Source: Obrimoposthia wandeli (Eukaryota). From it: DNA of 64,000 bases. The notes under the pieces were generated by a model that saw only the letters and a program-made list of their open reading frames with translations, made no database searches and was not told where the DNA came from. The DNA is taken from positions 1 through 64,000 of the forward strand of contig CDROCS010006332.1 of NCBI GenBank assembly GCA_977020255.1, in the 5' to 3' direction. Shown piece after piece: positions 3,311 through 28,940 of this stretch. Position 1 is the first letter of the stretch; the number at the start of each line of letters is the position of its first letter. Made by a program: the position numbers and the translations under genes.

Positions 3311-3329
3311 TAAGTTTAAACGTGTTTGT

Positions 3330-3828: not shown

Positions 3829-4106
3829 TAGGACTTTCCAAATTGTATTCTGTAAAATCATCTTTCATATGTCTGAACTTGTTTTTTATTGCACGCTTTA
3901 ATTATCTTGCAAAACCTATTATAATTGGATGATATATTTTTTCCAGTAAAATTTGATTTTTAATACAGATTTAGTCCAATCAAATTCAATGCTTTAGTTA
4001 TATTAACCAATGAGATTCATGTCTTTGTTAGAGATTAGTATAAAAGAATGCGCCATTGAAGGACAAATCACAGTAAATGCATTCATATCAAAGACAATTA
4101 TCAACG

Positions 4107-4566
4107 ATGGATGATAATCAACGGGTATTAAGCGATGAGGAAGATATAGAAATGTTTGAAGAATTGGATAAGGATATGTATGAAGAAGTGAAACAATCCA
4201 GAAAGAATTTCAAAAGGAAAACTATGTAATATATTAAAGAGGCATTAAATTATACGAGTTATGAATACTGTGAAAATATCAAAAGTGGAGAATAAATATC
4301 TCATCGAAATTTTAACAACATCTGATATTGATCATTTGAAAAATATTTTGGGATTTTAGATTCCTTATGGATATGAAGGAAATTCTTTCCAGCTCGAAAC
4401 TGATCCCAGTCTGGCTTTTAAATATGATCTAGGATATTTGATTGCTCCAATTCTAGATGAAGAACTATGGAATATCTCAATACGTCTCAATGGATATTTT
4501 GCTGATGACGGGAAAATGCAGCCTCTCTGGACTTTGAGTGAACCCAATATGATGTTTTATGTTTAA
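4107..4566 (+). pseudogene. Accessory genes 7 and 8 fused by an internal deletion (copy A)
   Basis: Matches 24652-24742 joined directly to about 25278-25647; about 535 bp is missing relative to copy C. Confidence 0.75.
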
Positions 4567-4794
4567 TAAATATTTTGAAAATAATTTTGACTCGTATTTT
4601 GTTTTTTACCTCTAAATTATATAGATCTGTCTTAATTTGTCTCTTATAAATAAGAATAGCCGCCGGGGCCAATATGGATTCCCGTGGTCTTCTCTAATCA
4701 CTTTTTAGATTCATGGTAAATTTCAAAGTAAAATAAAAAATGTGGGGGACACCCCTCCTCATTCTTAGGGTGGAATGGAGACACATATGCATGA

Positions 4795-4879
4795 AATTTC
4801 ACTCCACACACATGCACGGTTTTAAAGAACAGTGGTACCCCTCCCGGGGGGTGGATCAGACCGGACACATCCACCTACT
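4795..4879 (-). repeat. Polinton-type terminal repeat (right end) abutting the intron of gene 3
   Basis: Reverse complement begins AGTAGGTGGATGTGTCCGGTCTGATCCACC; the flank GTAAAC resumes gene 3 intron sequence. Confidence 0.75.
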
Positions 4880-5316
4880 GTAAACCTACCTAAATATTTT
4901 GAAAGTAAATTAAATATTTTATCTGCAACAATTTCCGGAGTATCATCTTTTGAGAAATGATTTTTTTCATTATCTTCCATTAAATCTGGAGATAATTTAA
5001 TGTATTATTTGTTCCAAATTATTTTATCATCCATCTTATAAAAAACATTATATATAAAATTGTTTATATTTAGTAAAGTTATGTAAAATATTTAAAATAT
5101 GATATTTTTTAAATACTTTTTTTGAATACTCTTCAGGTTTAATCTGGGGTATTCTCTTTATTGCAGCTCGGTAATTGTCCTCCATCTCCAATCTTATTTT
5201 TTATCCAGTTTCTTTTTTTCCAATTCAACCTTCCTATTTCAGTCCAGGATCCGTTGTCGTTCTGCTAGACGCCTGTCTTGAATCTCCAACCGATGATTCC
5301 ACTCGGTCACGACAGC
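4880..5316 (-). pseudogene. Fragments of accessory genes 3 and 2 (copy A)
   Basis: Homologous to 15440-15540 and 15065-15270; gene 2 is cut at 5316 by an AGTAGTAGG terminus. Confidence 0.75.
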
Positions 5317-5586
5317 AGTAGTAGGTGGAAGGATGGAGTCTAAGCCACTTTACCCTCTCTTAAAGGATGTCAATCCATAAGGATGTCACATCATAAAAGG
5401 TGTCTTAACATAGTGGGTATATATGCTGCTCTCACCTTCGGTGACCCAACATATACCCTTATGGTATGGCAAGACACTTTTTATGGTGTGACACCCTTAT
5501 GGAGTGACACCCTTTAGAGGGAGGTGGAGGCGGGGAGGGGAGGAGAGGGGTCATGGCTAGACTCCATCCTTCCTTGATATACTACT
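5317..5586. mobile_element. Short element bounded by AGTAGT...ACTACT with imperfect inverted ends
   Basis: Left end AGTAGTAGGTGGAAGGATGGAGTCTAAGCC; right end (reverse complement) AGTAGTATATCAAGGAAGGATGGAGTCTAGCC. No TSD. A related end lies at 43500-43606. Confidence 0.5.
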
Positions 5587-5960
5587 ATGGTCGTCCATAG
5601 TTTAAAGGGTCAAGTGGCTGTCTTTAAATCTCCTTCTTTTGAGATATACCATGAAAGGGTAAAGTGGCTTAGTCTCCAATTCCTTCTTTTGAGATATACC
5701 ACTATGAAAGGATCAATTGGCTTAGTCTCCACCCATCTTTTTGTGATATACCACTATGAAAGGATCAATTGGCTTAGTCTCCACTCCTTCTTTTGAGATA
5801 TACCATCATGAAAGGGTCAATTGGTTTAGTTCCAATCCATCTTTAGTGATCTAGTCTCCACCTTCTTTAGTGATCTAGTCTCCACCCTTCTTTTGGCTAA
5901 CTACTAATTCAAAGGATCAAGTGGTTTAGTCTCCACCCTTATTTTTTGTGATCTAGTCCA
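5555..5960. repeat. Tandem array of about 50-bp units related to the adjacent terminus
   Basis: Repeated GGCTTAGTCTCCA...CTTTTGAGATATACCACTATGAAAGGATCAATT. Confidence 0.8.
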
Positions 5961-6439
5961 TAATGAAAATTTATGATAAAGTTCACACTTTTAACACTAA
6001 GAAATGTATGACGTAATCATACACACTATTCTATGTGAAAATTTAGGCTAAAGTTCACTTATAAGTTAATGAATGCATTACGTAATCACACATACTCATT
6101 TTTATGTGAAATTTAGATCAAAGTTTTTCCTGTATCAAGCATTTATAGAATTATGATAAAATTTCTTTAAATAACTTCAATTATATATTAAAATATAAAA
6201 TAAAATAAGAAAGAAGTCAGAGAATAATACAAAATTAAACACATTTATTATGTAATTTCATAATATCATCTTCAAACTTAAGTGAATAACATTTACAAAG
6301 TAAGAAAGTCCATTCTTTATACATTCTTTTCGTTTCAACGACTAAGTTACAACGGAATTAATAGAAAATTAGTAAAAAAACATTAATTTATTTGAATATT
6401 TGAATGAGAGTTTGAATAAATGAGAGGTAGAATGAAATG

Positions 6440-7370
6440 TAAATGAATAAATTATGCATGCAAAAGTATGAATGTCATTTACAAGTAAGAGTCTTAGCAA
6501 GTGAATGTAATTTAAAAATAAGAGTGTCGATAGTTTGATTGAATGCAGTAATTTAGACTATAAGTAAATTAAAATAGAGTTTTTGTTGAATAAATTATAG
6601 TTAGATTGAATGCACATCGAGCGCGACTTCAATACAAGCAAGTAAGTTTAGCAAGTGAATGTAATTTTAAAAATAAGAGTGTCGATAGTTTGATTGAATG
6701 CAAGTGTTTAGACTATAAGTAAATTAAAATAGAGTTTTTGTTGAATAAATTATAGTTAGATTGAATGCAAGTATGACGAGCAAGTGATTGATAGTTTGAA
6801 TTTCAATACAAGTAAGTGTCTTAGCAAGTGAATGTAATTTATAAAATAAGAGTGTTGATAGTTTGATTGAATGCAAGTGTAATTTAGACTATAAGTAAAT
6901 TAAAATAGAGTTTTTGTTGAATAAATTATAGTTAGATTGAATGCAAGTATGACGAGCAAGTGATTGATAGTTTGAATTTTCAATACAAGCAAGGGTTTAG
7001 CGCAAGAATGTAATTTTAAAATAAGAGTGTCGATAGTTTGATTGAATGCAAGTGTAATTTAGACTATAAGTAAATTAAAAATAGAGTTTTTGTTGGAATA
7101 AATTATAGTTAGATTGAATGCAAGTATGACGAGCAAGATTGATAGTTTGAATTTTCACGTCAAGTAAGTGGGTTTAGCAAGAATGTAATTTTAAAAATGA
7201 GGGTGTTGATAGTTAGATTGAATGCAAGCGTAATTTAGACTATAAGTAAATTAAAATAGAGTTTTTGTTGAATAAATTATAGTTAGATTGAATGCAAGTA
7301 TGACGAGCAAGTGATTGATAGTTTGAATTTTCAATACAAGTAAGTGGGTTTAGCAAGTGAATGTAATTTT
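6440..7370. repeat. Tandem repeat of about 176-bp units, about 5 copies
   Basis: TTAGACTATAAGTAAATTAAAA recurs at about 6553, 6708, 6884, 7059 and 7235. Confidence 0.95.
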
Positions 7371-7499
7371 AAAAATAATGAATATTTTTAATGAATATAT
7401 GATTGTATTTTAATATAACTATATTTTGTAAAAAAATCTAATTTTTTTTAAAAGTTAAAATAAAAACATAACACGTAAAATTATTTTTTATAAATTTTA

Positions 7500-7780
7500 T
7501 TGTTTCTAAAACGCTTCACAAAGTCATCATTGGGATCATCCTCATCGATATCCCTCCGGTTGAGTGGTATAGGAGAAAGCTGCACTGGCTCCTTATACTT
7601 CTTTGATCGCCCTGGCTTCTTTTTCGGCTGCACTGGTTGATGTGCAGCAATTGGCTTTCTCTGAGGTTTTGGAAATAGTTACCGCTACTTTTTGGGAGGA
7701 TGCTTTCGGTGCTGCCGATGTTGTTGTTGTAGCCTTCCTCTTCTGCGGAGCCGTCTTCAATTTCTCTTCTTTTTTACCCT
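7500..7780 (-). pseudogene. 3-prime fragment of accessory gene 1 (copy E)
   Basis: Encodes KKKPGRSKKYKEPVQLSPIPLNRRDIDEDDPNDDF, matching the gene 1 C-terminus. Confidence 0.8.
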
Positions 7781-7949
7781 GAAGCTAGCGTAATTTATAG
7801 TGATATATACATGTGTAATTGTAATAGTGAAAGGGGGGATATGTAAAGATGGATAAAGTTAATGAAAAATACTGTAGCTCTCGGAGGGCGCGAATTTCGG
7901 TGGAGCGTTGGGTTGGCCGCACCACACCACCCCATGCCGAAATCTTTCC

Positions 7950-8330
7950 CTCCATCCGTTCACTCCACACACAAGCATGAAATTTCACTTCACACACATG
8001 CACGGTTTTAAAGGACAGTGGTAGCCCCCCTCCCCTTCGGGACTTAAATGTATTATTTTCAAAGGATGGAAGATAGCAAAGGATATTAAGCGATGATGAA
8101 GATTTATAAATGTTTGAAGATTCGGATTCAATACATTTTTACATCCAATAAGAACGAATTTTATATCCACAGAGCTGATAAAGCATTTTTTAATGGATGT
8201 GGAAGTGAAATAGATGTTGATGCGTTTTTTTGAAAAACAATTCGACTTTAAAATTACAAAAAGAATGAAATTGGAACAAACCTACATATGTGGGAAATTT
8301 ACTGTGCTCATAACCCTATGTTTTGAATAT
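7950..8330 (+). pseudogene. Truncated terminal repeat followed by a decayed copy of gene 7
   Basis: TIR motif at 7960-8030, then sequence homologous to 24652-25096 (AATAAGAACGAATTTTATATCC shared). Confidence 0.7.
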
Positions 8331-9392
8331 TTTTTCTTCTATCTTACTTTATTTTTACCACGTTTCTTTAATTTGTGTATTCCTGCATGTAATAAATTGT
8401 AATAATATTTTTAAATAATAATTGTATCTCATTTAAATATATATTGTTTTTTAATCAATTTCTTAATTTCAAAATGGATCGTTTTCTGTGATATGCAGCA
8501 ATTTTTATTATATAATATATAATATTATTTTAATGTGTAAAAATATAATTTGAATTAAATAAACATTCTTTAAATTATATAACTATGTAATTAATGTATT
8601 TAAACATAATGTTTTTTTTAGTAAATTGTTGCATCTTTTAACAACTTACGTCCAATATTTGACTTCCTTAGTATCACAAACAAATAAATGTATTTACATT
8701 AATTTGAATCCTATTTGCAATAAACATACATCTTACGTACAAGAATAATTTAAATAATATTACTTTAAACAGTAGAGCTACCCTATAGTGAAGAAAAAGA
8801 AAGTAAGTTTGAAAATATGTTACTAAAATAGAATAATGGAGAACAAAAACTATGAGACATAGATAAATCCTCTATGTCTAGTATCCCTAGGGAGGTTTCG
8901 TTTCTGGATATGTACATACCCTACTTGCAGAATATATCCTACTCTATTGATACAGCTTCATCACCCAGATATCGTTAGGCGACAACAGAACAAAGTTGAA
9001 GAAGCTGCTTATTGGTATTATGGTGTCACGCGTGGCAGTTGGCTATTCACCGTCTCAAGAAAGTCAATGTGCTCCTCTGAACAGCACGGTTATTTTTCCA
9101 TCTTATAACAGCATTATTTCTTACATTCCCTTATTTATCTTCCTCCAGATCGGGCTCTACTCTAGGGGCCTTACAAAGGTGCATATGCTACATGGATTCC
9201 CTTACGTATCGAGCAGCCCACACACAACCGCTTCACCTACTCATCTAGAAAATGTTCGTGCTTGATTCTCTGTCTTCTTTAGTATGTGTAAGAACTTTAT
9301 CATTTGAGGTATTTGTCTTTCGTAACAAAGAAAAGTACATCGGTATCTCCCTAGTAAAAATTAACAAAAAATGACTCACTTTTTTAAAAAAA

Positions 9393-10100
9393 TTGTTTTT
9401 AAACGTTAAAAACTATTTTTATGATAATTTTGTAACTGAAATTGGAAGAGACCTAGATGAAAAAATTGCTAATTATAGCGAGTTAAGTAGTGTATGGACT
9501 CTAGTTAGAATTCACGATGTTAGCTTTGTTTTAACAAAGTTCACTGACATGATATATCTTTCGGGGAGTTCATACATTCTTTCACCTAGATCTCTTCAAC
9601 TTTCACGTTTCATTGTTAACATACAAAACAGTGATAACCTTTGCTTTCTGTATAGCGTGTTGGCCATTCTCAAAAGGGATGTAATTATCGAGCATAGAGA
9701 GCGTGTCAGTAAATATATCCCTTTTTTAAATGAATTGCAGTATCATGGAATAGATTTTCTTGTTAAATTAACTGCGATATAAAGACTTGAACACCTTAAT
9801 AACTTGAGTAATAATGTATTCAAATATAATACTGATATTTCAGTTAATGTAACAGATGAAGAAAAATTTTTAAATCCTTTTGTAGATGTAATTTATAGGA
9901 GCAAAAATGAGGAGACTCCAGTAAATTTAATTTTGTTCGAACATAATAATAAATTCCACTATGCCGCAATTCCAAATTTAGATCGTATTCTAAATTTAGA
10001 TAATGGAGCCTTACCGGTTAGGATAAGGTGTAAGTGGTGTCATAGATGTTTGCATGGGTTCCGATCCGAGATCTCTTACAGCAAACACTTGACGCTTATT
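9393..10100 (+). pseudogene. POLB: N-terminal region of protein-primed DNA polymerase B
   Basis: SGSSYILSP...IVNIQNSDNLCFLYSVLA...RVSKY...GIDF resembles the GSSYIPLP...INIxNxDNxCFxWSILA signature of Polinton/adintovirus pPolB N-termini. One stop; cut at about 10097. Confidence 0.8.
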
Positions 10101-10670
10101 TCCCTTTTTATCTCTTAAAGTACGATCTTTCTAATAATGCTGCTTTCTAATGTGAATAAACATTGTAGTAATTTCTAATATTATGTTTAAATAATGAATG
10201 AATTCGTTGATTATAAAATTATTTTCCGTAATCGGTTTGCACATTTTGTGGAATGTCTTATTTAAATATTTATTTAATTGCTTCTAGCATAGCTATTGAA
10301 ACTTTGCTTTAACTGGAACTACACGAGCAAACCTGCTAAATACATCAATACGTGTTAAAATATATCGATATCCCTTATTAATGGAAGAATATGGTATCAT
10401 CTCTCTCAAATCCATTTGCCATAAATTATTAGGACCGCTGGTTTTGTAAGCTCTAGTTGGAAACCTTCTTCTCATCGGCTTGTTCAGGCTGTAAGTTAAC
10501 TGGTCGCTCAGCCATTTCTACGTTTTGTTGTAATTCTGTTTTGCTAATTTTGAGACTCCTGTGTAGCCAATTGGATCTTTTGGGATTGAACCATATCTTC
10601 TCCTTTACAACAATTTGAATATATAGAAAATTTGAATTTAGGTAAAGAACGGTTAGCAACCATATCTTTA
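10097..10670 (-). pseudogene. INT: 5-prime fragment of Polinton integrase (second copy)
   Basis: TSGPNNLWQMDLREM...RIDVFSRFARVVPVK; closely matches 21920-22500. Confidence 0.9.
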
Positions 10671-12840
10671 GGTGATTTTTAAAATAATTTTAAGGCGAAA
10701 TTTTTACATTTTTACGACAAATTAACAAATTATTTATACTTTAAAAATGTTTTTACAACGACATCCAATAAACAACTTAGGAAATGCATTCACAAGTGGT
10801 CCGTCACAAAGGACATCACTAACCTTGTCCTGAAAATCAATTTGTTTACTGCTTTGATTAAAATAGTTTGTGTACCAAAGGCCTATAATATTCCCTCAGT
10901 CAAGTCCCTTTTTGGTTTAATTTTAGTTGTTCAATTTGTAAATTCTTAAAATGTTTTATTGGAAATTTGCAATCCTTAATTTTACATGAACCTATAATAA
11001 TAACAGTAATAGTAATACATGTTAGAAATATAACTATAATGTAATCCTTAAACTTTTCAATGTATTTTATCGGTTTCTATGATCGACAGGGTAAGTAACT
11101 AACTCTTCACTTAGCTGTACCTTTATAATTTATATTGATAATTTTCCTTACATAACTAATAATATTGATGTAGCCATATACGTATATAATTATATATTAT
11201 ACAATGAGAATCAACAACCAATCAGATTCAAGTAGTCAACTATAAGTAACAAACATTTTATTTAAACTTTCATTATTATTTTATCATGTTCACTTTTCAA
11301 AATCCAATTGTGAAAAGCATTAGAAAGAATAATATAATGCTGAATACACATACAATCAAAATCCAATTGCCAAGAAGCACCTAATGATGCAGAAGGTGTT
11401 GATCAACGAGAACTTATTTCAAGAAGCGGTACCTTACTTCAATTTCAAAATAAACTTCCTTAAGATTCATGAAACCTTTGGATTTCAATAACCAGTCATG
11501 CTAACAAAATCCAAAATTGATTATGTTATTTCAAGAATCCACAACTTAGAAATTAATCACCTTAATACTATTTTCATAGGTAAGAAATTGGAAGTCTAAA
11601 TTTAAAATTTCAGTGTTTTCACAAAAGTGGATGAACATATTTTTCTCTGAAACACATGAATTCTCTGAAGAAAGATTTCCCAAAGGAAAATATTGAATTT
11701 TATTTATTCAAAAACAAGGTTTCAAAGTTGATAAACTCGGGAAACAGAAGCATGTATGGAAAATTACTGAAGGTCATGTGAAAGTATAATATATATTTGT
11801 TGTATTTTACTGACTTTTTACTGTCTTTTTACTTTAAACAAAACCAAGTTTTGAATTTTCATTGCCAAACGTGCTTCCCAGTAATGCAGAGCTTTCCTGT
11901 TAGGAAACTCTGTAAAGGAGACAATGGTTTTTAAAACAAAAATTCATAGCCACGAAATCATATAAAAATTTAAAATTTAAATATAGTTTCATTAAGACAA
12001 AATTGTAAAGAAAATAAAGAAAAATATAATATCATATAAAGAAAAATTCCATCACACTTCTCCTCACGAACTTTCTCAGGAGCAGACTCAATTTCTCTTC
12101 TAGTTGATATTTATTCATTTACCCAATTTCCTTAAGAACGTTTGTACCACTTGCAGATCAGCTCAAATAATCTGACTATGGCCCTCGTAACGATGCTTGT
12201 GGTCACCGTCACAGTCGCCATCTCGATCTTCTTCATCAAGCGGATCGTGCGCAGAAATGTGGAAAGGTACTTTAATTATTTATGGACCAAACAAAATGAT
12301 CAAAATCTCAATCAAGTCTGGACCAATTTCTATGTCACAATTAGCGTCAGTACACTCTGTCATTTGAAAAATATTTTTTCTTTAACATTTTGATAAATTT
12401 TGTGTCAGTGAGGAAACTTAATCAAATTTGATTTCAGCTTTCGGGTGGAATTGGGCGAAACTGTAAAATATTTTTAACAAAGGTTGACACAAAAGTCTGC
12501 AAATATTTAATAGAGTTTTAGCTAACACATGAAACAAGAAGAAGAAAATATCCATGGCAATGTCCATTTGTCAAATTGAGTTCTTTCAATCTTGATGGGG
12601 AAGTTAAATGGAAACTTTGTGTGAAAGCCTAAAATACTTTCCTAAGTCACAAAGTTCCTTCACAGGTTAGATTCCACTTTTCATTGTTCCCTAGTCTTCG
12701 TTCTTAATACATTTGTTGTTTGAACGGGTCGTTGTTGAACTGATTGAGATCATTATAGGGATGCGGACTATATCCTATTTTCCTAATATCCAGGCACAAA
12801 AAACATTACAAAAAATAAATTATTTGAATAAGAGGCTCTC

Positions 12841-12918: not shown

Positions 12919-14746
12919 ATGCCATTCTACAACAACGTTGACCTAGACGAAGAGACCGAGGTTCAACTGTATGGGGATCTCTTTCCAGTGCAGCAACGAA
13001 CGCCACCACCGTCGCAATACATTGACTTACTTAGTCAAGACTCATCGGTGGTGAGCGAAGGAGAAGCAGCAGCAAGAGCGAACCTGTTGGAAGAAGAAGC
13101 CCCATTGGCCAGCGCAACTCCAATAGAAGAACCAATGGACGTGAGAGGTGGGGTACAGAGATCCCAATATATTGACCTGACAAGTCAGAATTCGATTGAG
13201 AATTGGGTAGACTGTACTCCCCGTCAGAACCTTGAAGCCCCTCGTCCAGCAACTTCGGCAGTAGCATCAAGGAGATCATGGCCATGGAAATTGATCCCGC
13301 TGTCTCAGCCGGAGAAAGTTCTCGCACCAGACTCAGACGAGGAGCTGTTCACTGATGACGTACCATTGGATAGGGAAGAGGACTGGACTCCATTCATAGA
13401 TGAATGTATACAGCCAAGTATCGGAGCCCCAGAAGCCAACGATTCGATAGTGGCAGAATTGGACGAGAACGAGTGGCACCTGTTCACCGACGATTGGGAT
13501 GGTCTCACTCCCTCTGCTACTCCAACTCCGATAGCGGAAAATACAACGCCCGAACCATTCAAAAGGCCGAAATCTCCTGTTAGGAGAATAAAAGCGACGA
13601 ATGAGGTTAGACATCATTTATTTTAAATGTTTTTTAATTTCATTTTCAGAAACTTCAATAGGATTTGGCACTGTCAGTAACCATGGTGGAGAGGCTCATA
13701 GAACCGCAGTACTTGGCGAGTCAATGTAGCCAGGAGCTGCCAAGGAGTCAGCTCCGTTACCTAGCGTCTCCAGATAATTTGAAGGTAAATTATTTAGATA
13801 TTAAATTTAATAATTCACATAGATGGAGAACATTCTCAAAGAGGCAATGCCCATTCAACCGGTGGATAGGATGCAAGCAGCGGTTAAGCAACCGCAACGC
13901 CATCGATTCAAAACCCACACGGTCCATCGGAAGAAGGTCAAGTTGGTGAAACAGGCTAACCTGCTCGTCATTGAGGTAAATTATTTATATGTTTAAATTT
14001 TATTAATATTTTGTAGGAACCCTTCCAGATATTTGAGGAGACATGGGCAGAAATTACTCCTTTCCCGCGGAAACGGACGAAGCGAGCTGATGTGAAGAAG
14101 ACGAAGCGCTCATGAAAATGTTCCACCTCAATTGGCCATTCTTCTGAGGCGGTGATTGGACGTCAGGAGATTCTCCTATCTCCAGTGGACGACGGGCCAA
14201 TTCTATACGAGAGGATCCCAGTCTCACCGATCGAGATTAGTCCACCACCAAGTCAACGACGCCTGCAGGAGACATCTAATTTGGCCAGTGCTTGGGAAAC
14301 TGCATCTCCTCGTCCAACAATCAACCAGAACTTGAAGAGGATCTTAGATGAAGCTGGATTAGACGAATTCCTGACGGAACTGGATACACCGCCAATGCTT
14401 CCATATTTGAGAGGGCAACATGATGCCGTCTCACGTCAGCTTCAGCGTGAGAAGGAGGAGAAACAGAAGAAAACTCCGCGGAATAGGAAGGCTACTGTTT
14501 CTATGTCGGGGCCATCAACATCGGCTGCACCTCCTCCCTAAATGTTGCGGCACCTATTGCCAAAACCTCAGGGAAAGACAATTGCTGCAAAACAACCGGT
14601 GAAGTCGAAAAGGAAACCGGGCTGACCAAAGAAGAATGAACCAGTACCGCTTTCTCCATTAATACTTAGTCGGAGGGATTTTGATCCGGATGATCCCAAT
14701 GATGACTTCGTAAAGATGTTTAAGAATATAATTTATAAAAATTAAT
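12919..14746 (+). pseudogene. Accessory gene 1, copy B: four-exon acidic/Pro-rich protein with a C-terminal AT-hook-like motif
   Basis: Exons 12919-13605, 13650-13784, 13823-13975 and 14017-about 14746. Introns are 44, 38 and 41 nt, all GT-AG and phase 0. Stops in exons 2 and 4, frameshift near 14540. Motif KRKPG(R)PKK reads TGA here but is intact in copy D. Confidence 0.75.
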
Positions 14747-14956
14747 TTCATATGTTTTCTTCTTAATATTTATTTTTTTTTAAATTTTAAATTTAGAAAT
14801 ACTATCTTTAAGTTTATTAGGTTTAAATGCAATGATAAGTTATAGATTTATTAAACTCTCATTTGATAAATAAAAATATATCATTTAATTGGATTAAAAA
14901 ATATCTTAAATTTATATATATAGGTTCAAATTTATTAACCTTTTCATAATTAAAAA

Positions 14957-15270
14957 ATGGAATTCATTAAAATGAAGAGTCTGGTAACGAAGATTGAAGC
15001 AAACATCAGAATAAATGAGAAGAAAGGGGACTTAAGAAAGAGGGTCCTCAATCAGAATCTGTATGCTGCTGTCGCGACCGAGTGGAATCATCGGGTGCAG
15101 ATACAAGATAGGAGGCTAGCAGAACGATGTCGAATCGTGGAGTGGAATAAGAAGATCGAAATGGAAAAGAAGAAGGTGGATGAAAAAAGAAGAAAAGAGA
15201 TGGAGGATATTCGGAGGCAAGCAAGAAAAAGAATCCTACAGATTAACCGGAAGAGTTTAAATTTTTTGAT
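14957..15270 (+). CDS. Accessory gene 2, K/E/R-rich probable coiled-coil protein
   Basis: ORF homologous to 44103-44400, 27844-28130 and 5140-5316 (AAVATEWN motif in all). Confidence 0.6.
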
Positions 15271-15439
15271 TAATTTTTTGTCTTTATTGATTAGGTTACA
15301 TAATTGTCTAAATATTTTACACAATTGTCTAAATATTTTACATAAGCATACTAAATATAAACAATTTTATATATAATGTTTTTGTAAAATGTATAATTAA
15401 ATTTGGAATAAATTATACATAAAATTATCTCCAAATTTA

Positions 15440-15611
15440 ATGGAAGATTATAAAAAAAAATTGCTTTCAGAAAATGATACTGAGGAAATTGTTGGATATA
15501 AATTATGTAATTTAATTTCGAAATATTTAGGTATGTTTACATTTAATATAATTTATTTTAATATTCATAGGAGAATTGACAATATATACCAATCTTAACA
15601 TGAAGGATTGA
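15440..15611 (+). CDS. Accessory gene 3, putative 43-aa two-exon protein
   Basis: MEDYKKKLLSENDTEEIVGYKLCNLISKYLG|ELTIYTNLNMKD with a 40-nt GT-AG intron (15531-15570). Exon 1 is recognisable in copies A, C and D. Confidence 0.45.
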
Positions 15612-15679
15612 ATCCTGAATACCTTGTTATTTTATTTTTTCGTTATAAACAACGAGATTTGCTGCAAATTTAGATAATT

Positions 15680-16169
15680 ATGCAGGAATATATCATAGAT
15701 TTTGAGGCTTTCATTAACAAAAATGGTGATTATATTATAAAATAATTGTGTATTATGGATGTATGCAACGTTTTTCATCCTTTGCATTTCATATTTCAAA
15801 TATATATCCCGTTTAAAAGTTTAGATTATAAGAAAAAATTTACTCATTTATATCTAACTAATTACTTTCATTTATTAAAATGGAAAGAAGGACGTAAGGC
15901 TTTTTGTGAAATATGTATTTTCGATACAATAAAATCTAATTTTGATATTGAAAATGGAAGTTTTTATGTTTTAAATGAAATGGATGGAAAAAATGTATAA
16001 GACTTTAAAAAAATATTTTCCCAAATTGAGATTGAATACTTTAAATATTTCACGTGATCATCTATTAAAAATTCCACGAAATATTTGCTGTTCATATCGT
16101 AGTCATGGTGACCATTGCGCATATAAAAAATGTTTAAGTCTATCTTATTATTACTTGACATGTAGATAA
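15680..16169 (+). pseudogene. DEDD/DnaQ-like (Maelstrom-like) nuclease, copy B
   Basis: MQEYIIDFEAF...YIIK*LCI...YLTNYFHLLKWKEG...CCSYRSHGDHCAYKK; TAA at 15743 and a frameshift near 15990. Confidence 0.6.
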
Positions 16170-16385
16170 ACAATTATTCTAATTCATAATTTACAAAAAT
16201 TTTCATCCAATTACAAATAAGCCTTTTAATGGGAGAAATAAAAAAAAAAATTGACCATTTAACAGATAAACAATCCTTCTCAATAAAATTCAATATTTTC
16301 ATCCAATAGGAAAAGAGCATGTGTGCATAAATTTTAGTATATAAGCAAACACTTTCTTCATTTAAATCCCCTACTATTTGAAATA

Positions 16386-17420
16386 ATGACTATGGTAAGA
16401 ATCTATACTTATTATTTCATTATTAATATTTATTATTTCAGATTACATGTATCCTGTTTCCAGCATATTGTGGTGCTTCAGCTCTGCATGGATGAGAGAC
16501 CTGCATGGAGATAATGTCCGCCTACAATCGGATAAAGTCTTGCGGGCTTCAATTCTTCGTCTGCCCCTTCTGCAGAACAATGGAAGATAAGGAGTTTCGA
16601 GACTTCTTCGGTGAACATCGAGATCACCTATCCTGTTTCACAGCCAACAAGAAGAGGGATATCGTGCAATTGGTGTGCGATTCACAGGTCTCTCCTGCTC
16701 CAATTCTAGTTGCAGTCATTCAACCCGTTTACGGTCCTGCAATTGGTCTCCCGTCTCCTGATTCTGCACCATCCACTCAAATTAATAACAATGAGTGGAT
16801 GAACGACATCTCCCAAGAAGATATAGAGATGGAGCAGTGGAGCGACAACAGCTGGTTGGAGACCACCGAGGAATCCGATGTCGTTGAGTTCACGGATGAC
16901 AGCTGGATGGATTCCGTCAATGAAGAGGACTTCCAACCAGCTACAGTTGGATTGCCTTCATTAGGTACTTTTTTATTATTATTTTTCTGATTATTTTTTA
17001 AAATTGTAATTATATATATTTTATATTTTATTTTTATTCAGGAAATACCGTGATACAGCCGTCGTCCGCTACGACAGCCATGCTTTCCCCATCGCGAGTG
17101 CCTACACGCCTTAGAGGTAATAATTTAATAAAATATTTTTATTTTTTAATATATTTATTTCAGCAGCATCAGCCTCTACACCAGCTGCTTTTTCGTCGGC
17201 AATGTCGGCTACTACCTCAGCTACTCCAACTTCAAATGCAGCCTCTACAACTGCCACTGTCTCATCATCTGCGGTAGCATCTATTACATCAGCATCGTCT
17301 ACATCAGCTGCGATTGCCTCAACATCGGCAGCATCACCAATATCAGTACCTTTCACCTCAACTGTTAATATAAATAGTAGAGGACTTGCGGAAACGTATT
17401 TGTCTACGGTTTTGCAATGA
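16386..17420 (+). pseudogene. Accessory gene 4, copy B: four-exon RING-like/Cys-His protein with acidic and Ser/Ala/Thr-rich tail
   Basis: ATG ACT ATG|GTAAGA...TTTCAG; YCGASALHG*ETC...CPFCR; further GT-AG introns near 16963-17041 and 17116-17163. The 3-prime end is fused to pPolB sequence. Confidence 0.65.
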
Positions 17421-18119
17421 TGAGCGTAAACTAATACATATACTAGCAAGTACATCTTCAAGCGTAGTTTTACAATTGCAGATGACTTGGTACCAGTGTT
17501 ATTAGGAAAACAGAGTATTTGTCTCGATCAACCGAGTTATATAGGTCAAACGGTTTTAGACATTTCTAAACTCAGAATGTACGAGCTTCAATACATAGAA
17601 TTAGAGAAATATCGACGAGAATTCAATTGTGAGATCAAAATCGCAGCTGGGGACACTGACTTTTTCTTTTCAGAATGTAAAAATGTTAGTTTAGATAATC
17701 AATTATTACCGGCAATGTTTAGGGACAACTTACTAGATACCCATAAATATCCCGCTAATCATCCTCTACACTCTATGAGTTTAAAGGACATTATAGGGAA
17801 ATTTAAGGATGAAAGCGAGGGACAGGTTTCGTATGATGATTATATTTTCCTACGCCCTAAATGCTACAGTTTACATGAATCTAATAATACATGTTCAATG
17901 AGAGTAAAGGGTGTGGGAAGAAACAATCTTACACATGAGGCCTACCGGAAAGTTTATGATACTGGGTGTATTGAAAGCGTTGAGCAAACTAGATTTATTT
18001 CAAGAGCCCATCAACTGTATTCCCATAAATCAACCAAAATCGCTTTGAGTAGTAATGTCGACAAGCGCTTTTGGGTAGAAAAGAACGCTAGCCTGGCTTA
18101 TGGACACTTCCGAATTTAA
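17380..18119 (+). pseudogene. POLB: C-terminal fragment of protein-primed DNA polymerase B
   Basis: EDLRKR..., QPSYIGQTVLDISKLRMY, GDTD (motif C), IIGKFKDE, LRPKCYS, RVKGV. Confidence 0.93.
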
Positions 18120-18381: not shown

Positions 18382-18764
18382 CTAATCGTTTTGCAACGAT
18401 AACCATAAAATACATAAATGTCCACAGTTTCTCGTCGCAGGATCCTGATATTGTATCTTGTTGTAAAATACTCTTCTTCGTTCTTTTTGAATAGTTGAAA
18501 CTAGTTTGTGTGGATAATACATTGCAAGTGGATCAAATACATGTATTGTCCACTCTCTAACATAAATAGCTATCCAATGTTCTCCTGATAAATTCGAAGT
18601 ATGAGTATTGATAATGTATCCTCCAGATTTTGAAAAAATGGAATCATATCAATAGGATAGACTCCATTGAATTTATCACCCAAGACCTTCTCTGCTGATT
18701 CTTGTACTTGTACTGAACTAAATAAAAATTAATAAATATAAATTTAAAAAATGTCTTACTTCAT
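18382..18764 (-). pseudogene. PRO: Adenain-type cysteine protease with an intron in codon 2 (one frameshift)
   Basis: Spliced MNSVQVQESAEKVLGDKFNGVYPIDMIP/GGYIINTHTSNLSGEHWIAIY...FDP...QYQDPATRNCGHLC; catalytic H, D and C motifs present. Confidence 0.88.
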
Positions 18765-18765
18765 T

Positions 18766-19994
18766 CTATAATATGACAGTTCTGTTTTTATTGATTTGTA
18801 TTTCGGAATCAAACACTCCGTAAATAAGCACCGTAGTAGGATGTGTTAAAGCTGCATTGAACTTAATTTCTAGTCGTAAATTTCCATCCCTTGGTAGTTG
18901 GCATTGGTTTATATCAAATGCTGGTGCCAAAACAAATGTGAAGAAGGGGCAGCTACTTTTAAACTCAGTGAAAGAAATACCATTGTTTATATTTTTATCT
19001 AGTTGGCCCAAATTCCGAATAATATATTGCGTATAAGCCAAATCATAAGCGTTACCTTCGAAATCTGTTTTATATGTTTCACGATAATCAGTATTTCGTG
19101 AAAGTGTCACTGAACCTAAATTAAGATAGTCAAATTGAGTTGCATCTGTCGTATAATTTCCTAGATACTTTGCAGTTTTTTGAAAATAAATTAAAATAAA
19201 TTTCGGTAATCTTACATCACCAAAAATTTGATCCTTATTTAAAGCTTGTGTACCCGTACCTAAAGAATAGGATATAAGTTTAGTTTCTCTAATAGGATAA
19301 CAAGCATTGTTTTTTCCATTCCTATATTATGTGCCATTAAAACTGATTACTCGGTTTTAACTCTTCGGACATACAATTTTGCATCCAAAATATCAAGTCT
19401 AGGTTTTAGAACGTTTGTGCTTATCAAAGAAAAATTCCATTTATTACGTTTCAAACGAAGATGTACATTTACACCGGGAATTAAATATTTCAGTCGTTCA
19501 AAGAAATTCAATCTCAAAGACCCACAAATTTCGTAAGCTTTAGAACCTGCAATCCATTCTTTGCGCGCTGCAGCCGTTTTATCATAACCAATGGTTGCCA
19601 AATTAGTATTTTGAGTATCAGTACTATAATTTAATAGACTTTCAATCAAAGCTTTATGAGCAAAGGAAGAATTTCCACCTTCAATTTTGACATTATTAAG
19701 AGTAACAATGGCATCACTAAATAAAGAATTAAAGAGATAATTTACAGGTGTTACATCTGCAATTTCCTCTAAATTAGTACCATCACGATTTAATACTTTT
19801 ATTTGAACATAAAGCAAAGTATCATTCAAATCTAAATACTCGCTATTGGAACCATTAATATTAAATTCTAAATCGGTTAAAGTGGTTCCTGAAACTGAGT
19901 TAACTAGAAATATTTCTTCAAAGGAAGCATTATCTATAACTACTTGTGGAAGTGGTTTATCAAAAATACACAATTCGGTTTTGGCGCAACTCAT
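18766..19994 (-). pseudogene. MCP: Major capsid protein (double jelly-roll, hexon-like)
   Basis: N-terminus TELCIF...LEFNINGSNSEYLDLNDTLLYVQIK; C-terminus GNLRLEIKFNAALTHPTTVLIYGVFDSEIQI. Stop at 19347 and a frameshift near 19310; the middle part can be read manually. Confidence 0.92.
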
Positions 19995-20368
19995 TTTGCA
20001 AATATTGTTCCTTCAACATTCTTACGTGTGTTTATATTAATTTTTTGATTCTTTTTACGTTTAAATCCACTACCTATTTGGCTTTTATTTGATTTACGTT
20101 TTCTAATCAAATTAGTAACTTCAGGTAAAACATTATAAAGTTCATCAAGCGCATGCTTCTTAAAAGTTGGTATTAGTTTATTGTCCTTAGTTGAAAGGTA
20201 ATCCTTTCCTAATTTTGATATAAACCGCCCGAGTCTCTTTAAAAGAGGAAAGGCAAATCTACCTAATTTTCTAAGCCAGCCAGATCCATATTGTTTACCA
20301 ACAAAATATGGTAATTTTCCACCTTGATGGCTTTGACTATAAGCTTCAATTATTGCTGGATTCGCCAT
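19991..20368 (-). CDS. Basic virion core-like protein with QGG/GSG sites and an amphipathic helix
   Basis: Intact 125-aa ORF between penton and MCP: QGGKLPYFVGKQYGSGWLRKLGRFAFPLLKRLG. Confidence 0.7.
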   Translation of the reverse strand: MANPAIIEAYSQSHQGGKLPYFVGKQYGSGWLRKLGRFAFPLLKRLGRFISKLGKDYLSTKDNKLIPTFKKHALDELYNVLPEVTNLIRKRKSNKSQIGSGFKRKKNQKININTRKNVEGTIFAK

Positions 20369-21409
20369 TTTGCTTTCTTAAATGTATTGTTAAACTTGTC
20401 TTGGCCCCGTACTTGAAATCTATTAGTTGTCCGGAATCATCTCTAATATTTACTTCAATATTGTTTATAGAAAAGAGAGAAACTGGAAGATACATTGGTT
20501 GATCTATACACATACCGACAGCGTCCCCATATCTAGTTTCATTTTTAGATATCCATATGGTTCTCAAAAGTGGAACTCGCTGTCCTCCTACAAGCGTTGG
20601 TTCTATTAAATTAGTATAAATATATAAATGATTAACAGCATTTAAAAGTTTTGCCTTATTTTTAGCTTTTATGGTTTTTATTGTATGGGTTTCAAAGGTA
20701 TTACTGTTTAAACCAAGGTTTTTAGCGAGTTTATCATCAAATAAAACTCGTATTATATTGCTCTTTACTGTAAACGTTATTTTACAATTTTTTAATCTTA
20801 CACATTTTTCAAAATATTCACTACATTCCTTCTGTATTAATTTACAGATATTCACTTCACTATCTAATTTATAATCTTTTGAAAACATTTTCAGTTCCAC
20901 TACATACTTTGGTCCCGTTTCAACTAAAAACACTTTTATTACTCTATCAGGAACATTTTTAAACGATTTAGATGAGGCTATATCAGATCTCTTCATACCT
21001 ACTACATGTCCACTGTCAAAACCGAATTGAATAGCTTCTTTTTCAGATCGAAATATAATTTGAATAGGTTTTGAAAAATGTTTTAGTCGATTTTTAAACC
21101 TGACTTTGTTTTTTTCATATATTACTTTCACTTCTTTATCTATACAATTGTAATATAATTTTCCTTTACTATCAAACCCAATCACAACTTCAATTGATTT
21201 TTCATGATAAACTTCTTTTGTAAACGAAAATTGTGAGTTTTTTTGATAGTAATTGGAGAATAATAAAATGAAAATTCTGTTAAAGCCGCTTCCTATTCTC
21301 CTTGGAGATTTATAGGATTTTCCCAATCGATAATAAAGCTACTAGCGTAATTGTCTGGTTGAGTCTTCGGACATCCGTTACTAGGTAAAACCATATACAT
21401 AGACTTCAT
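20346..21409 (-). pseudogene. mCP: Minor capsid protein (penton-like)
   Basis: N-terminus MYMVLPSNGC...F...P.NLQGE*EAALTEF; C-terminus LYIYTNLIEPTLVGGQRVPLLR...MYLPV...IEVNIRDDSG. Confidence 0.88.
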
Positions 21410-21415
21410 ATTATA

Positions 21416-22490
21416 TTAGATGCTGATATCCAAGTTGGGTCTGAATAACCATGCCATTTAACTTAGTATTGTTTATGTTTACCTGTACCCTTAGATTTTA
21501 ATATTTTTTGAATACGGAAAACGCTAGGTTTATTTAATATTACTTGTAGTTCTTGCTCGTCAAATTTACCGTGAACGATATTATTGTCAGCATCTTTAAT
21601 AGTATACATTATTGGATTACTCTTTTGATCAATTTTACTTATACAAAATATTTCATCGCTCCAATTCTGATCAAAGCTTTTAATAAATGGAGGAAAAATA
21701 ATTTTCGAAATTCGAACATATTCGTTTTTCTTATATTTAGCTTTTTTAATATTTTCTTTTTTATTCCTGTTCATCCAAATATCCATAGAGTTTTTATTAG
21801 TAACATTAACATGTCTCATTCCCTTGAGACCTCTATGTTCAGAGTGATTATATGCATGTATTATTTTAGGTAAAACTTGGATCCATTTTTTATTTCCTTC
21901 TTTTGTGAAATACATTTTTATTCGATCTCTTAAAGTACGATTAAATCTTTCTATTACTTCTGCTTTGTATTGTAAAACACAGAGTAGTGATTTATATTAT
22001 TTTGTTTAAATAAAGATTGAACTTACTAATTATAAAATTATTTTCCTAAATCAGTTTGCACATTTTGTGGAATGTCCTCTTTTAATATTTCTTTAATGGC
22101 TTCAAGCATAGCTATTGAAGACTTTGCTTTAACTGGAATTGCACGAGCAAACCTGCTAAATATATCAATACGTGTTAAAATATATCGATATCCCTTATTA
22201 ATGGAAGAATATGGGATCATCTCCATCAAATCCATTTGACATAGATTATTAGGACCGCTGGTTTTGTAAGCTCTAGTTGGAAACATTATTCTCATCGGCT
22301 TGTTCAGACTGTAGGCTAACTGGTAGTTCAGCCATTTCTGCGTTTTCTTGTATTTTTGTTTTGTTCTTTTGGCTAATTTTGAAACTCATGTGTAGCCAAT
22401 TGGATCTTTTGTGTTGAACCATATCTTCTCCATTACAACAATTTGAATAGAAAGAAAATTTAAATTTTGGTAAAGAAGGGTTAGCACCAT
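21416..22490 (-). pseudogene. INT: Retroviral-type (rve) integrase with C-terminal chromodomain
   Basis: QMDLMEM, RIDIFSRFA, QTDLGK, ERFNRTLR, QY*VKWHGYSDPTW; several stops and frameshifts. Confidence 0.93.
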
Positions 22491-22519: not shown

Positions 22520-22783
22520 TTATGTACGTGTCGCAGCTATAATACTATTGATAATTGAAGCAACAACTGGAATAACAGCCCCTATGAAACCACCATTCTG
22601 TTTAAGAATAATATTTCGTTTCCTTTTTTTACTTTTTACATTAGCAATATCTAGAAGAGTTTTTCTATATTTCTTTAATATATTTTTCCGATTTCCAACT
22701 TTTACTCGACCCAAAACTATATTATACAAAACTTCCAATAAATCATCTACAACAAAGGATGGAAATGCTTTAAGAATAATCAT
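22520..22783 (-). CDS. Small conserved Polinton/adintovirus-type protein ending in QNGGF plus a hydrophobic helix
   Basis: Intact 87-aa basic ORF between ATPase and integrase: LKQNGGFIGAVIPVVASII. Confidence 0.7.
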   Translation of the reverse strand: MIILKAFPSFVVDDLLEVLYNIVLGRVKVGNRKNILKKYRKTLLDIANVKSKKRKRNIILKQNGGFIGAVIPVVASIINSIIAATRT

Positions 22784-22888
22784 TCTCTTATTAATTTTTT
22801 CACTTCTTTTTTCTTAATGATTCTTTTTTTTGATTTCTTAGATTTTACTTTACGTTTTACTATCAACTTTGTAAAAGGCATCGCGAAT

Positions 22889-23553
22889 TTATTTTTTATA
22901 ATTGTTCTCTATTTGTTTATAAACAGTTACTCCATTAGAATTAAATATGTATGTTAAAACACGTAAATCATCTGTGCAAGCTTGTGTAAAGTCAATAAAT
23001 ATATACCCATGTGCTTGTTTAGCAGCATCGTGGAATGAATCAACTAGAAAGTTCTTATCTTGAGGAAATGCCTGTCTGGCCACAAAATCAACAACTGTTT
23101 GATCTCAAGGATTTTTCAATAAAACTAAGTAATGTACATTAAGATTTCTAGTTCTATGGTGACCTCCTTGGTGAAAAAAATTTTGAGTGATAAATATAAC
23201 TGTTACTTCACGATGTCTTGCAATCTTCGTAAATAAATTATTAAAGTCTGATTCCTTGTTAGCTTCCTGATACAAATCATCAATTATTATTACATCTTCT
23301 TTTTTCAATCTTTCACACCAATTTGCATCAAATCCTTCAATAAATTGTATTCTCTTCAACTTGCAAACTTCTGTTTTGGTTAACCCGCTTTCCCCTCCTC
23401 ACCCATGATGCCAATAAATATTTTTGAAACTAGATTTGAAAATATATTCGTTTAACAACAATTTACATACGAAATGTGTGTTTCCACTTCCACTGAGACC
23501 AACTATTTGAAAGACAGCATTATTATTTAACTCCATTACAGATATATTTTCAT
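22889..23553 (-). pseudogene. ATP: A32/FtsK-like genome-packaging ATPase
   Basis: Walker A GLSGSGNT, Walker B VIIIDD, ARH, ITQN, LARQ and GYIFID motifs; one TGA and one frameshift. Confidence 0.92.
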
Positions 23554-23874: not shown

Positions 23875-24371
23875 TTATAGAAATGATAACAAGATGTAAT
23901 AAGATATATTTTCTAAAATCAAATCAACAATGTCTGGATAATCAAAATTTTTCAATCCCAATATCATAACTTTATCACTGGAAAATATATTTACACATAG
24001 CGGTTTAAACTTCAAATAACTGAGAGCAGGAAAATTTTCTGGTTCAAACATGCATTCTTCTTTCATTTTCTCTGCAGTTTTAAAAAGATTTATCTGTTTC
24101 CCGAGATTAGCCGAAATCGTGATTGATTGTATTGCAGTGATTCGAATTCCAAACGGTAAATTGAACCCAAGCATTGGTATTTTGCATCCCATAACACGAC
24201 AATTTCCTAAAAGAATTCAATATGAAAATAAAAAAACTAACCTGTAGGAAAAATAACAACTGTAAAATTGTCAAACTTTTCCCCATATTGTCTCGGCTTC
24301 CATTCATTGAATGGCAAGTACGAAACATCATCTTCTGTTCTAGCTTTATAATTTATACTTACAAGTTTCAT
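23875..24371 (-). CDS. TATA-binding-protein-like protein, 153 aa, two exons, intact
   Basis: Exon 1 24371-24242, 35-nt intron 24241-24207, exon 2 24206-23875. Repeat 1 VVIFPTGNCRVMG and repeat 2 FEPENFPALSY...CVNIFSSDKVMILG parallel TBP ALIFSSGKMVCTG and YEPELFPGLIY...LLIFVSGKVVLTG. Confidence 0.8.
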
Positions 24372-25726: not shown

Positions 25727-26742
25727 CTACAAACCTCCCCCTAATTGAACGGGAAGACAACTATTTATATTAACAGTTGACACAAACGCAGCTGAGATTG
25801 AAGGTGCTGCTATTGATGATGCTACCGATGTTGAGGCAATCGCAGCTGATGTAGTAGATGCTGCTGAATTAAGTGCTTTCGCAGTTGTAGATGCTGCATT
25901 TGGAGTAGTAGCCGACATTGCCGATAAAGAAGCGGCTGTTGTAAAGGATGATGCTGCTAAAATAAATATATTAAAAAATAAATATATTTTTTAAAATTAT
26001 AACCTCTAAGGCGTGCTAACATCGATGTAGGCACTCGCGATGGGGGAGGCATAGCTGTCGTAGCGGATGACGATTGTATCACGGTATTTCCTGAATAAAA
26101 AATAAAAATAAAATATATATAATTACAATTTTAAAAAATAATAATAAAAAATACCTAATGAAGGCAAAGCAACTAGAGCTGGAATGAAGTCCCCTTCATT
26201 GGTGGAATCCATCCAGCTGTCGTCCGTTATCTCGACGAAATCGGATTCCTCGATGGTCTCCAACAATGAGTTATCGCTCCATTGCTCCATCTCGAAATCT
26301 GACTGGGATATGTCATTCATCCAATCATTGTTAGTCATTTGAGTGGATGGGGCAGAATCAGGAGCCGGGAGAGAAGGACCAATCGCAGGACCGTAAACGG
26401 GTTGATCGACTGCAACTGGAATTGGCGCATGTGCGGCCTGCAAATCGCGCACCAATTGCACGATATCCCTTTTCTTGTTGTTGGCCGTGAAACAGGATAG
26501 ATGAGCTCGATGTTCACCGAAGAAGTCTCGAAACTCCTTCTCTTCCATTGTTCTGCAGAAGGGGCAGACGAAGAAGTGAAGTCCGCGAGACTTTGTCCGA
26601 TAGTAGGCGGACATTATCTCCATGCAGGTCTCTCCTCCATGCGGAGCCAAAGCACCACAATATGCTGGAAACAGGATACAAGTAATCTGAAATAATAAAT
26701 GTTAATAAATAAATAATAAGTATAGATTCTTACCATAGTCAT
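25727..26742 (-). CDS. Accessory gene 4, copy C (RING-like, four exons)
   Basis: Same exon and intron layout as copy B but without the TGA (HGGETC); ends naturally, convergent with gene 8. Confidence 0.6.
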
Positions 26743-26955
26743 TATTTCAAATAGTCGGAGATTTTAATGAAAAAAGTGTTTGTTTATATACTAAAATTTA
26801 TGCACACATGCTCTTTTCCTATTGGATTAAAAAATTGACAAGGATTATTTATATGTTAAATGGTTGAAAAAATAATTTTATTCCTCCAATCAAAAGGCTT
26901 ATTTGTAAATAGTTGTAAAATTTTAATAATGAATTCCTCCAATTAGAAGAATTGT

Positions 26956-27445
26956 TTATCTACATGTCAAGTAATAATAAGAAAGACTTAAACATTTTTT
27001 ATATGCGCAATGGTCACCATGATTACGATATGGACAGCAAATATTTCGTGGAATTTTTAATAGATGATCACGTGAAATATTTAAAGTATTCAATCTCAAT
27101 TTGGGAAAATATTTTTTTAAAGTCTTATACATTTTTGCCATCCATTTCATTTAAAACATAAAAACTTCCATTTTCAATATCAAAATTAGATTTTATTGTA
27201 TCGAAAATACATATTTCACAAAAAGTCTTACGTCCTTCTTTCCATTTTAATAAATGAAAGTAATTAGTTAGATATAAATGAGTAAATTTTTTCTTATAAT
27301 CTAAACTTTTAAACGGGATATCTATTTGAAATATGAAATGCAAAGGATGAAAAACGTTGCATACATCCATAATACACAATTATTTTATAATATAATCACC
27401 ATTTTTGTTAATAAAAGCCTCAAAATCTATGATATATTCCTGCAT
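26956..27445 (-). pseudogene. DEDD/Maelstrom-like nuclease, copy C
   Basis: Nearly identical to copy B, including the same TAA and the same frameshift. Confidence 0.6.
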
Positions 27446-27514
27446 AATTATCTAAATTTGCAGCAAATCTCGTTGTTTATAACGAAAAAATAAAATAACA
27501 AGGTATTCAGGATT

Positions 27515-28940
27515 CAATCCTTCATGTTAAGATTGGTATATATTGTCAATTCTCCTATGAATATTAAAATAAATTATATTAAATGTAAACATACCTAAAT
27601 ATTTCGAAATTAAATTACATAATTTATATCCAACAATTTCCTCAGTATCATTTTCTGAAATTAAATTTTTTTTTATAATCTTCCATTAAATCTGGAGATA
27701 ATTTTATGTATAATTTATTCAAAATTTTATTATACATTTTACAAAAACATTATATATAAAATTGTTTATATTTAGTATTTATAGGTAAAATATTTCTAGA
27801 CAATTTAACCTAATCAATAAAGACAAAAAATTAATCAAAAAATTTAAACTCTTCCGGTTAATAGGATTCTTCTTGCTTGCCTTAATATCCTCCATCTCTT
27901 TTCTTCTGAAGAAAGATTTTCATCCACCTTCTTCTTTTTCATTTCGATCTTCTTAAAACAAGGTTCCACTCCACGATTCGAAACATCGAAGCATGTATGG
28001 ATGATTCCACTCGGTCGCGACAGCAGCATCAGATTCTGATTGAGGACCCTCTTTCTTAGTCCCCTTTCTTCTCATTAATTCTGATTGTTTTTACTTCAAT
28101 TTCGTTACCAGACTCTTCATTGTAAAACCAAGTTTTTTAATTTTCATTGAAAAGGTGCTTGAACCTAATGCAAGATTTTTTTAAGGCTCCAATGTAAAGG
28201 AGATATATGGTTTTATTTATCAAATGAGAGTTTAATAAATCTATAACTTATCATTGCATTTAAACCTAATAAACTTAAAGATAGTTTCATTTAAAACAAA
28301 ATTGTAAAAAAAAAAAAAATATTAAGAAAAAACATATGAAATTAATTTTTATAAATTATATTCTTAAACATCTTTACGAAGTCATCATTGGGATCATCCG
28401 GATCAAAATCCTCCGACTAAGTATTAATGGAAAGCAGGTACTGGTTCATTCTTCTTTGGTCAGCCCGGTTTCCTTTTCGACTTCACCGGTTGTTTTGCAG
28501 CAATTGTCTTTCCTGAGGTTTTGGCAATAGGTGCCGCAACATTTAGAGAGGTGCAGCCGATTTGATGGCCCCGACATAGAAACAGTAGCCTTCCTCTTCC
28601 GCGGAGTTTTCTTCTGTTTCTCCTCCTTCTCACGCTGAAGCTGACCGACATCATGTTGCCCTCGCAAATATGGAAGCATTGGCGGTGCATCAGTTCCGTC
28701 ACCATCTCGATCTAATCTTCATCAAGGTCGTGCTCAGAAATTCAAGTACTTTGGTTGATTTATGGACGAGGAGATGCAAAATCTCCCAAGCAAGTCTGGC
28801 CAATTTCGATGTCTCCTGCATAAATAATCGTTGAATAATATTTTTCTTGGTGGTGAGACTTAATCTCGATTGGGTGAGAATTGGGATCCTCTCGTAAAAT
28901 ATTTTGAATTGGCCCGTCGTCCAAATATTTAATGGAGATT
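27515..28940 (-). pseudogene. Genes 3, 2 and the 3-prime part of gene 1, copy C (indel-rich)
   Basis: Inverted homology to 14160-15611. Confidence 0.75.

Follow-up and report, generated by a model that had tools for sequence, protein, structure and literature searches.

How a maturation protease can be produced from a gene whose reading frame, as it stands in the DNA, closes after two codons is the question raised by a locus of Obrimoposthia wandeli. The window, i.e., the whole stretch analyzed, comprises 64,000 nt (positions 1 to 64,000, forward strand, of contig CDROCS010006332.1, assembly GCA_977020255.1). On its minus strand the protease ATG occupies 18764-18762, and the unspliced frame reads Met-Lys-stop. 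The stop codon of the capsid (MCP) gene, TAG, ends at 18766 on the same strand, and the arrangement TAG-A-ATG leaves a gap of 1 nt between both genes, not the 2 nt given by a first-pass annotation of this DNA, which had proposed a spliceosomal intron at this place.

The proposed intron (18718-18759, minus strand) starts with GT at 18759 and ends with AG at 18718; these bounds, its length of 42 nt and the Met-Lys-stop reading are all confirmed by inspection of the sequence. The donor reads GTAAG and the acceptor is T-rich (TTTAG), while the GC content of the segment is 9.5%, vs. 23% and 37% in the 30-nt flanks. The coding part of exon 1 (18760-18764) is thus limited to 5 nt, the ATG and two bases of codon 2, and the intron is in phase 2, splits codon 2 and brings in an in-frame stop if retained. 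Among the 11 AG dinucleotides between 18757 and 18600 examined as partners of the donor at 18759, the one at 18718, chosen by the first-pass annotation, alone gives an adenain-like N-terminus; the remaining 10 were rejected, their frames being short and non-homologous. A pattern formulated post hoc (ATG-RA-GTRA ... YAG, 30–60 nt, GC ≤ 15%) has a single match in the window, compared with a mean of 0.04 (maximum 1) in 100 local shuffles. No self-splicing or structured RNA intron was recognized within the window by Rfam at gathering thresholds (0 matches), and 42 nt is too short for a self-splicing intron. Neither a second protease copy nor a repeat of the 42-nt intron was detected in the window by tblastn. 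On the basis of the splice signals, the base composition and the traces in related proteins described below, the prediction that 18759-18718 is a GT-AG intron of the spliceosomal (U2) type in the maturation protease gene is strongly supported.

Exon 2 (18382-18717, minus strand) encodes an adenain of the Peptidase C5 family (CE clan), as indicated by Pfam PF00770 and by its relatives, and comprises the N-terminal helix and first strand, a frameshift and then the segment with the catalytic His, Asp, Gln, and Cys. The spliced frame stops at codon 51; in tblastn alignments with intact relatives the frame changes somewhere between ~18636 and 18633, and the catalytic segment lies in the downstream frame (18633-18385), so the earlier statement that the new N-terminus is in frame with the rest of the gene is incorrect. 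The window copy is a frameshifted pseudogene that retains an intact intron within a decayed, fossil element. The match of the downstream piece to PF00770 (E 0.005) falls below the curated cut-off, which was passed by three of the five relatives tested.

Judged by its gene content, the element to which the protease gene belongs is a decayed Polinton/Maverick, in which the protease follows the capsid gene and is linked to an integrase, an A32-like ATPase and core-like ORFs. Upstream of the protease on the minus strand are located the double jelly-roll major capsid protein (18766-19994; disrupted by a stop codon at 19349-19347 as well as by a change of frame), a basic core-protein-like ORF with two Q-x-G-S-G motifs that is a candidate protease substrate (19991-20368), an interrupted candidate minor capsid (penton) gene recognized by position only, without Pfam match (20346-21409), a retroviral-like integrase with several stops and frameshifts (21406-22433; Pfam rve, E 1.8e-05), an interrupted basic pX/mu-like ORF with a Q-N-G-G-F motif (22520-22881; weak Adeno_PX match, E 0.06) and the A32-like packaging ATPase with internal stops (22889-23536; Pox_A32, E 0.004). 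The capsid gene had no Pfam match; the Atlas look-alikes of its N-terminal part (score 0.98) belong to DJR-like/F54H12.2-like clusters. Capsid, integrase and ATPase each carry stops or frameshifts. Convergent with the protease, on the plus strand, a 229-aa fragment (17430-18119) without Pfam or PDB match contains a GDTD motif, presumably that of family B DNA polymerases, and is probably the C-terminal portion of such an enzyme. The unit is flanked by the arms of a 3.2-kb inverted repeat, the left one carrying accessory genes (14186-17378, plus strand) and the right one at 25760-28923 (minus strand), which share 86% identity; neither an end motif nor a target-site duplication (6 bp in Polintons) was located, and the inverted-arm ORFs tested had no Pfam match. 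The left arm adjoins the truncated polymerase-like fragment, which suggests a rearrangement.

Several additional features were noted in the element and its surroundings. The morphogenesis genes overlap stop-to-start in ATGA fashion (21406-21409, 19991-19994, and 20346-20368, minus strand), an arrangement that coupled translation or nested transcripts would lead one to expect. The motifs Q-x-G-S-G and Q-N-G-G-F (in 19991-20368 and 22520-22881) are candidate cleavage sites with Gln where adenovirus has M, I, or L; the adenain cleavage motif is quoted as (MIL)XGXG in the accessible part of 10.1101/341131, and the likeness of Q-x-G-S-G to such motifs is inferred from sequence. A partial second element (~35-10700) lacks the protease region; its segments at ~2834-4629 and 9375-10689 are 87–93% identical to the ATPase-TBP and integrase regions, and polymerase-like N-terminal pieces are joined to an integrase fragment there. 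Further copies of the inverted arms occur near 35-1871, 4879-5318, 7457-7786, and 43606-45118. Outside the element, a Pfam scan of 137 of 157 ORFs matched only the TBP-like and ATPase pieces of the second copy. The window also contains a 480-codon open frame (51530-52972, plus strand), largely made of a 33-nt repeat, rich in Glu, Lys, Ser, and Ala and without Pfam match, and tandem arrays at 37842-38973, 50218-50525, 6511-7357, and 5681-5944 with units of ~20, 28, 176, and 52 nt, respectively.

The check proposed with the first-pass annotation, an alignment of the 5' ends of related protease genes, was performed on proteins. Where ORF callers translate across an unspliced intron, read-through residues remain in the predicted protein, and the junctions of relatives were back-inferred from such residues instead of being read in DNA. 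A total of 257 proteins were examined (one, the best 150 of 521, and 106 new ones among the best 120 of 289); a first classification sorted 121 as having Met in place, 30 as truncated and 19 as carrying a long leader but no Met; these 170 are the classifiable proteins, the other 87 offering no anchor. A stricter anchor reduced the long-leader proteins without Met to 18. In 13 of these Ser occupies the codon-2 column, as predicted for read-through of AG/Y (the slash marking the junction), the residue before it can be encoded by a codon ending in a pyrimidine and the preceding stretch is rich in F, Y, I, L, and N; by comparison, Ser is present in this column in only 1/34 relatives whose Met is exactly in place. 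The five without Ser are four distant proteins and P0173, in which a short deletion has shifted the register; P0017 escaped the anchor and fits the trace on visual inspection.

The donor side is also represented. All eight proteins with leaders of at least 15 residues, which are among the 13 with Ser, carry a trace of ATG-RA/GT 35–47 nt upstream, either as Y, N, or H followed by E-V (xAT GAR GT) or as x-W-S (A TGG AGT), implying ATG-AA/GT or ATG-GA/GT; the third frame of the window reads N-E-V at the same spot. As controls, 159/7876 window segments (2%) carry the donor trace, and of seven long-leader proteins that have Met in place a single one does, its trace falling on the protein's own start Met at the edge of the range. 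The implied introns measure 35, 37, 37, 38, 38, 38, 40, and 47 nt and, together with the 42 nt of the window, fall in all three frames, so that no retained-intron product is conserved. The position is kept across proteins of only 45–60% identity. Taken together, the acceptor trace (13/18) and the donor trace (8/8) point to an intron that is most probably old and conserved in position, with an interior free to diverge. P0155 begins with MNSVQ and has no leader; it may derive from a spliced transcript or from a copy lacking the intron. The spliced N-terminus of the window matches P0155, P0163, and P0164 at 13–14 of 25 residues (P0155, 13 of the first 25), and the tblastn alignments of intact relatives start at residue 2 (window position 18719). 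For the two closest relatives, P0001 and P0003, the called start is an internal Met, and the trace is not scorable. A micro-exon or trans-splice arrangement, in which the capsid stop TAG, 1 nt ahead of the ATG, would serve as acceptor, was also considered and rejected, as it fits only one of five scorable relatives. P0004, P0006, P0153, P0159, P0160, P0167, and P0170 display hydrophobic leaders that resemble signal or membrane segments; these most likely represent intron sequence that ORF callers have translated.

A total of 121/170 classifiable relatives start with Met in place, thus the intron is a trait of a sub-lineage and not of the family. Of the earlier proposal that the family relies on host splicing for a morphogenesis gene, the part concerning a sub-lineage is supported by sequence comparison, and its extension to the whole family is not. 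The related claim that ORF-based surveys would miss such genes is not supported: because exon 1 contributes no more than 5 coding bases, these proteases are still picked up by ORF callers, although their starts are truncated or preceded by false leaders. No relatives were recovered by a scan of bacterial and archaeal genomes (0 loci) or by a search of a phage collection. The trait clusters on phylogenetic trees beyond what shuffling produces (12/500 shuffles in the first tree and 1/500 in the second, from which P0017 was absent for want of an anchor). The trees are poorly resolved, the window sequence being placed with P0001 and P0003 in the first and with P0166, which has Met in place, in the second. 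A single clade of the intron-bearing set was not rejected by the AU test (p 0.67). As several proteins with Met in place sit among those with intron traces, and as the group submitted to the AU test was chosen after the first tree, a single origin is not established.

Short introns are not restricted to the protease. A TBP-like gene (23875-24371, minus strand; Pfam TBP, E 8e-10) contains a 35-nt GT-AG intron (24241-24207); when this segment is skipped, the frame stays open for 153 aa and is colinear with P0258, a homolog uninterrupted at this point. In the TBP-like gene of the second copy (~3330-3830, minus strand) the segment measures 39 nt and the acceptor is out of register. Only two TBP-like homologs were found (47–52% identity). 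A literature search retrieved no paper on TBP in Mavericks; in the accessible part of PMC8502044, the legend of a figure dealing with viruses that have adinto-like genes lists TBP. The accessory genes of both arms combine GC-rich exons with short, AT-rich GT-AG segments that are candidate introns (in the left arm, e.g., 16395-16441, 16965-17041, and 17117-17163), and in the right arm the ends of these segments are kept at 26733-26687, 26154-26091, and 26003-25957. Short, AT-rich introns of this kind are reminiscent of nematodes. In a DNA comparison, these accessory segments (41–77 nt, AT-rich, GT-AG) keep their ends between diverged copies and differ in length.

The explanation we consider very probable from these comparisons is that an intron arose in codon 2 of the protease gene in an ancestor of one Polinton/Maverick sub-lineage and has been inherited since then, the window copy being a fossil of this lineage. 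The capsid-protease region would be transcribed by the host nuclear RNA polymerase II; no AATAAA occurs between the capsid and protease stops (the first ones are at 18370 and 18306), hence a common 3' end for both genes is probable. ATG-RA would then be joined to exon 2 by the host spliceosome and, as seen for intact relatives, the product would begin with Met-Asn/Asp-Ser/Thr followed by the N-terminal adenain helix. Exon junctions trigger mRNA decay according to a 50–55-nt rule; a junction situated 6 nt after the capsid stop would spare a co-terminal capsid-protease transcript from this pathway. Ribosomes may reach the protease ATG through a promoter of its own inside the capsid gene or by re-initiation. 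Splicing is most likely constitutive, and the intron could persist without any special function because the loss of either splice site would kill the protease, while its interior drifts.

The first-pass annotation went further and suggested that splicing could gate virion maturation. The intron would in this case act as a regulated switch whose retention would keep the protease off until late in the cycle or outside permissive tissue. The conserved position among proteins that are 45–60% identical would suit such a role, as would the loss of the protein upon retention in the window copy and, in the accessible part of 10.1101/341131, the control of adomavirus late genes by splicing. However, donor and acceptor are strong and canonical, the interior is not conserved, similar introns occur in the TBP-like and accessory genes and most relatives (121/170) have Met in place; no result points to regulated splicing, and we regard the switch as unlikely.

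A second alternative dispenses with splicing: translation would begin within exon 2, some 12 codons from its 5' end, at an internal Met or a near-cognate codon, the AT-rich stretch being a spacer. P0001, P0003, P0015, P0178, P0181, and others are indeed called from a Met at that place, where the window has TTG. However, in P0167 the internal Met coexists with donor and acceptor traces and with the conserved upstream helix, and a spacer would not hold ATG-RA-GT at 35–47 nt in 8/8 cases. The predicted structure of the intact relative P0155 (mean pLDDT 94.9; best match, adenovirus proteases, E 5.7e-07, TM 0.76) shows a confident helix at residues 3–17, which are conserved among relatives, followed by a strand at 18–23, and a profile of 18 sequences aligns to the human adenovirus protease from residue 6 of the latter. 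The part encoded just 3' of the acceptor is thus a regular piece of the adenain fold, which argues against an internal start and makes this alternative highly improbable. Finally, the window copy could have acquired the segment recently, after integration, as an introner or a product of decay. The heavy decay of the element and the post-integration colonization of polinton-like proviruses by introners in dinoflagellates (PMC12166617, accessible part) could be invoked for this alternative. It is nevertheless hardly credible and largely refuted, as divergent relatives show traces of the same junction with differing interiors and lengths and neither a second protease copy nor an intron repeat was detected in the window.

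If inherited as proposed in the ancestral-gain explanation, the protease intron has several implications. Intronless core genes have been used to define intact Polintons and to argue for a viral lifestyle, a description that this intron would correct; spliced genes are ordinary in nuclear DNA viruses. An intron conserved in position suggests that the sub-lineage has long been transcribed and spliced in the host nucleus and selected to keep making its protease. Reads spanning the junction would prove late-gene transcription and thereby provide a direct activity assay, and the intron itself may serve as a lineage marker. It would also explain the false hydrophobic leaders and truncated starts of these proteases in protein databases. 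Introns of 35–47 nt are not spliced by every eukaryote, and their size may constitute a host-range filter. A broader proposal, which we consider doubtful, is that Polintons of this sub-lineage, residing in hosts with short introns, are spliced viruses in which the protease intron, retained despite great sequence divergence and located just behind the capsid stop, couples maturation to splicing, either as a switch or as a license that protects from the silencing of intronless foreign transcripts, and in which the 35–47-nt size limits hosts and horizontal spread.

The element shares with Polintons/Mavericks (Eupolintoviridae, "adintovirus") and their PRO/adenain the gene order, the integrase, the A32-like ATPase, the CE-clan fold and the catalytic His, Asp, Gln, and Cys. 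The starting premise of the first-pass annotation, that Polinton core genes are regarded as uninterrupted, agrees with the literature: in their accessible parts, PMC8097293 describes intact vertebrate Mavericks without introns, citing Kapitonov and Jurka (2006) likewise, and 10.1101/2022.07.12.499685 reports intronless core genes in nematode Mavericks, with introns only in cargo genes. The accessible portions of PMC8502044, PMC10748475, PMC12220804, PMC11296320, PMC8363768, and three 2026 preprints make no mention of spliceosomal introns in Polinton genes, and a literature search covering openly accessible article texts brought up no report of an intron within the protease gene of a Polinton. 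Whereas PRO/adenain is described as intronless, the coding sequence of the window protease is split in codon 2; this is a point of difference and no ground for excluding the element from the Polinton/Maverick group. The introners of dinoflagellate eupolintoviral proviruses are likewise spliceosomal introns in polinton-like elements, but they are young, mobile, mostly acquired post-integration and selected against in genes (PMC12166617, accessible part), while the window intron appears conserved in position and divergent in its interior. An unusual coding arrangement at the capsid-protease junction also characterizes the predicted Hexon-Adenain ("Hexain") fusions of adintoviruses (10.1101/2024.03.25.586562, section 16, accessible part), for which a ribosomal frameshift has been proposed, in contrast to the splicing envisaged here.

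Further parallels are the adenovirus L3 23K protease and adomavirus LO8, which have the same fold, occupy the same place after the hexon gene and need the host spliceosome. Adenovirus late genes are expressed by splicing. In adomaviruses leader splicing uses acceptors upstream of the LO4-LO7 ATGs (10.1101/341131, accessible part). In both of these virus groups a non-coding leader is joined to an acceptor located upstream of the ATG, whereas the predicted intron of the window protease lies inside the coding sequence.
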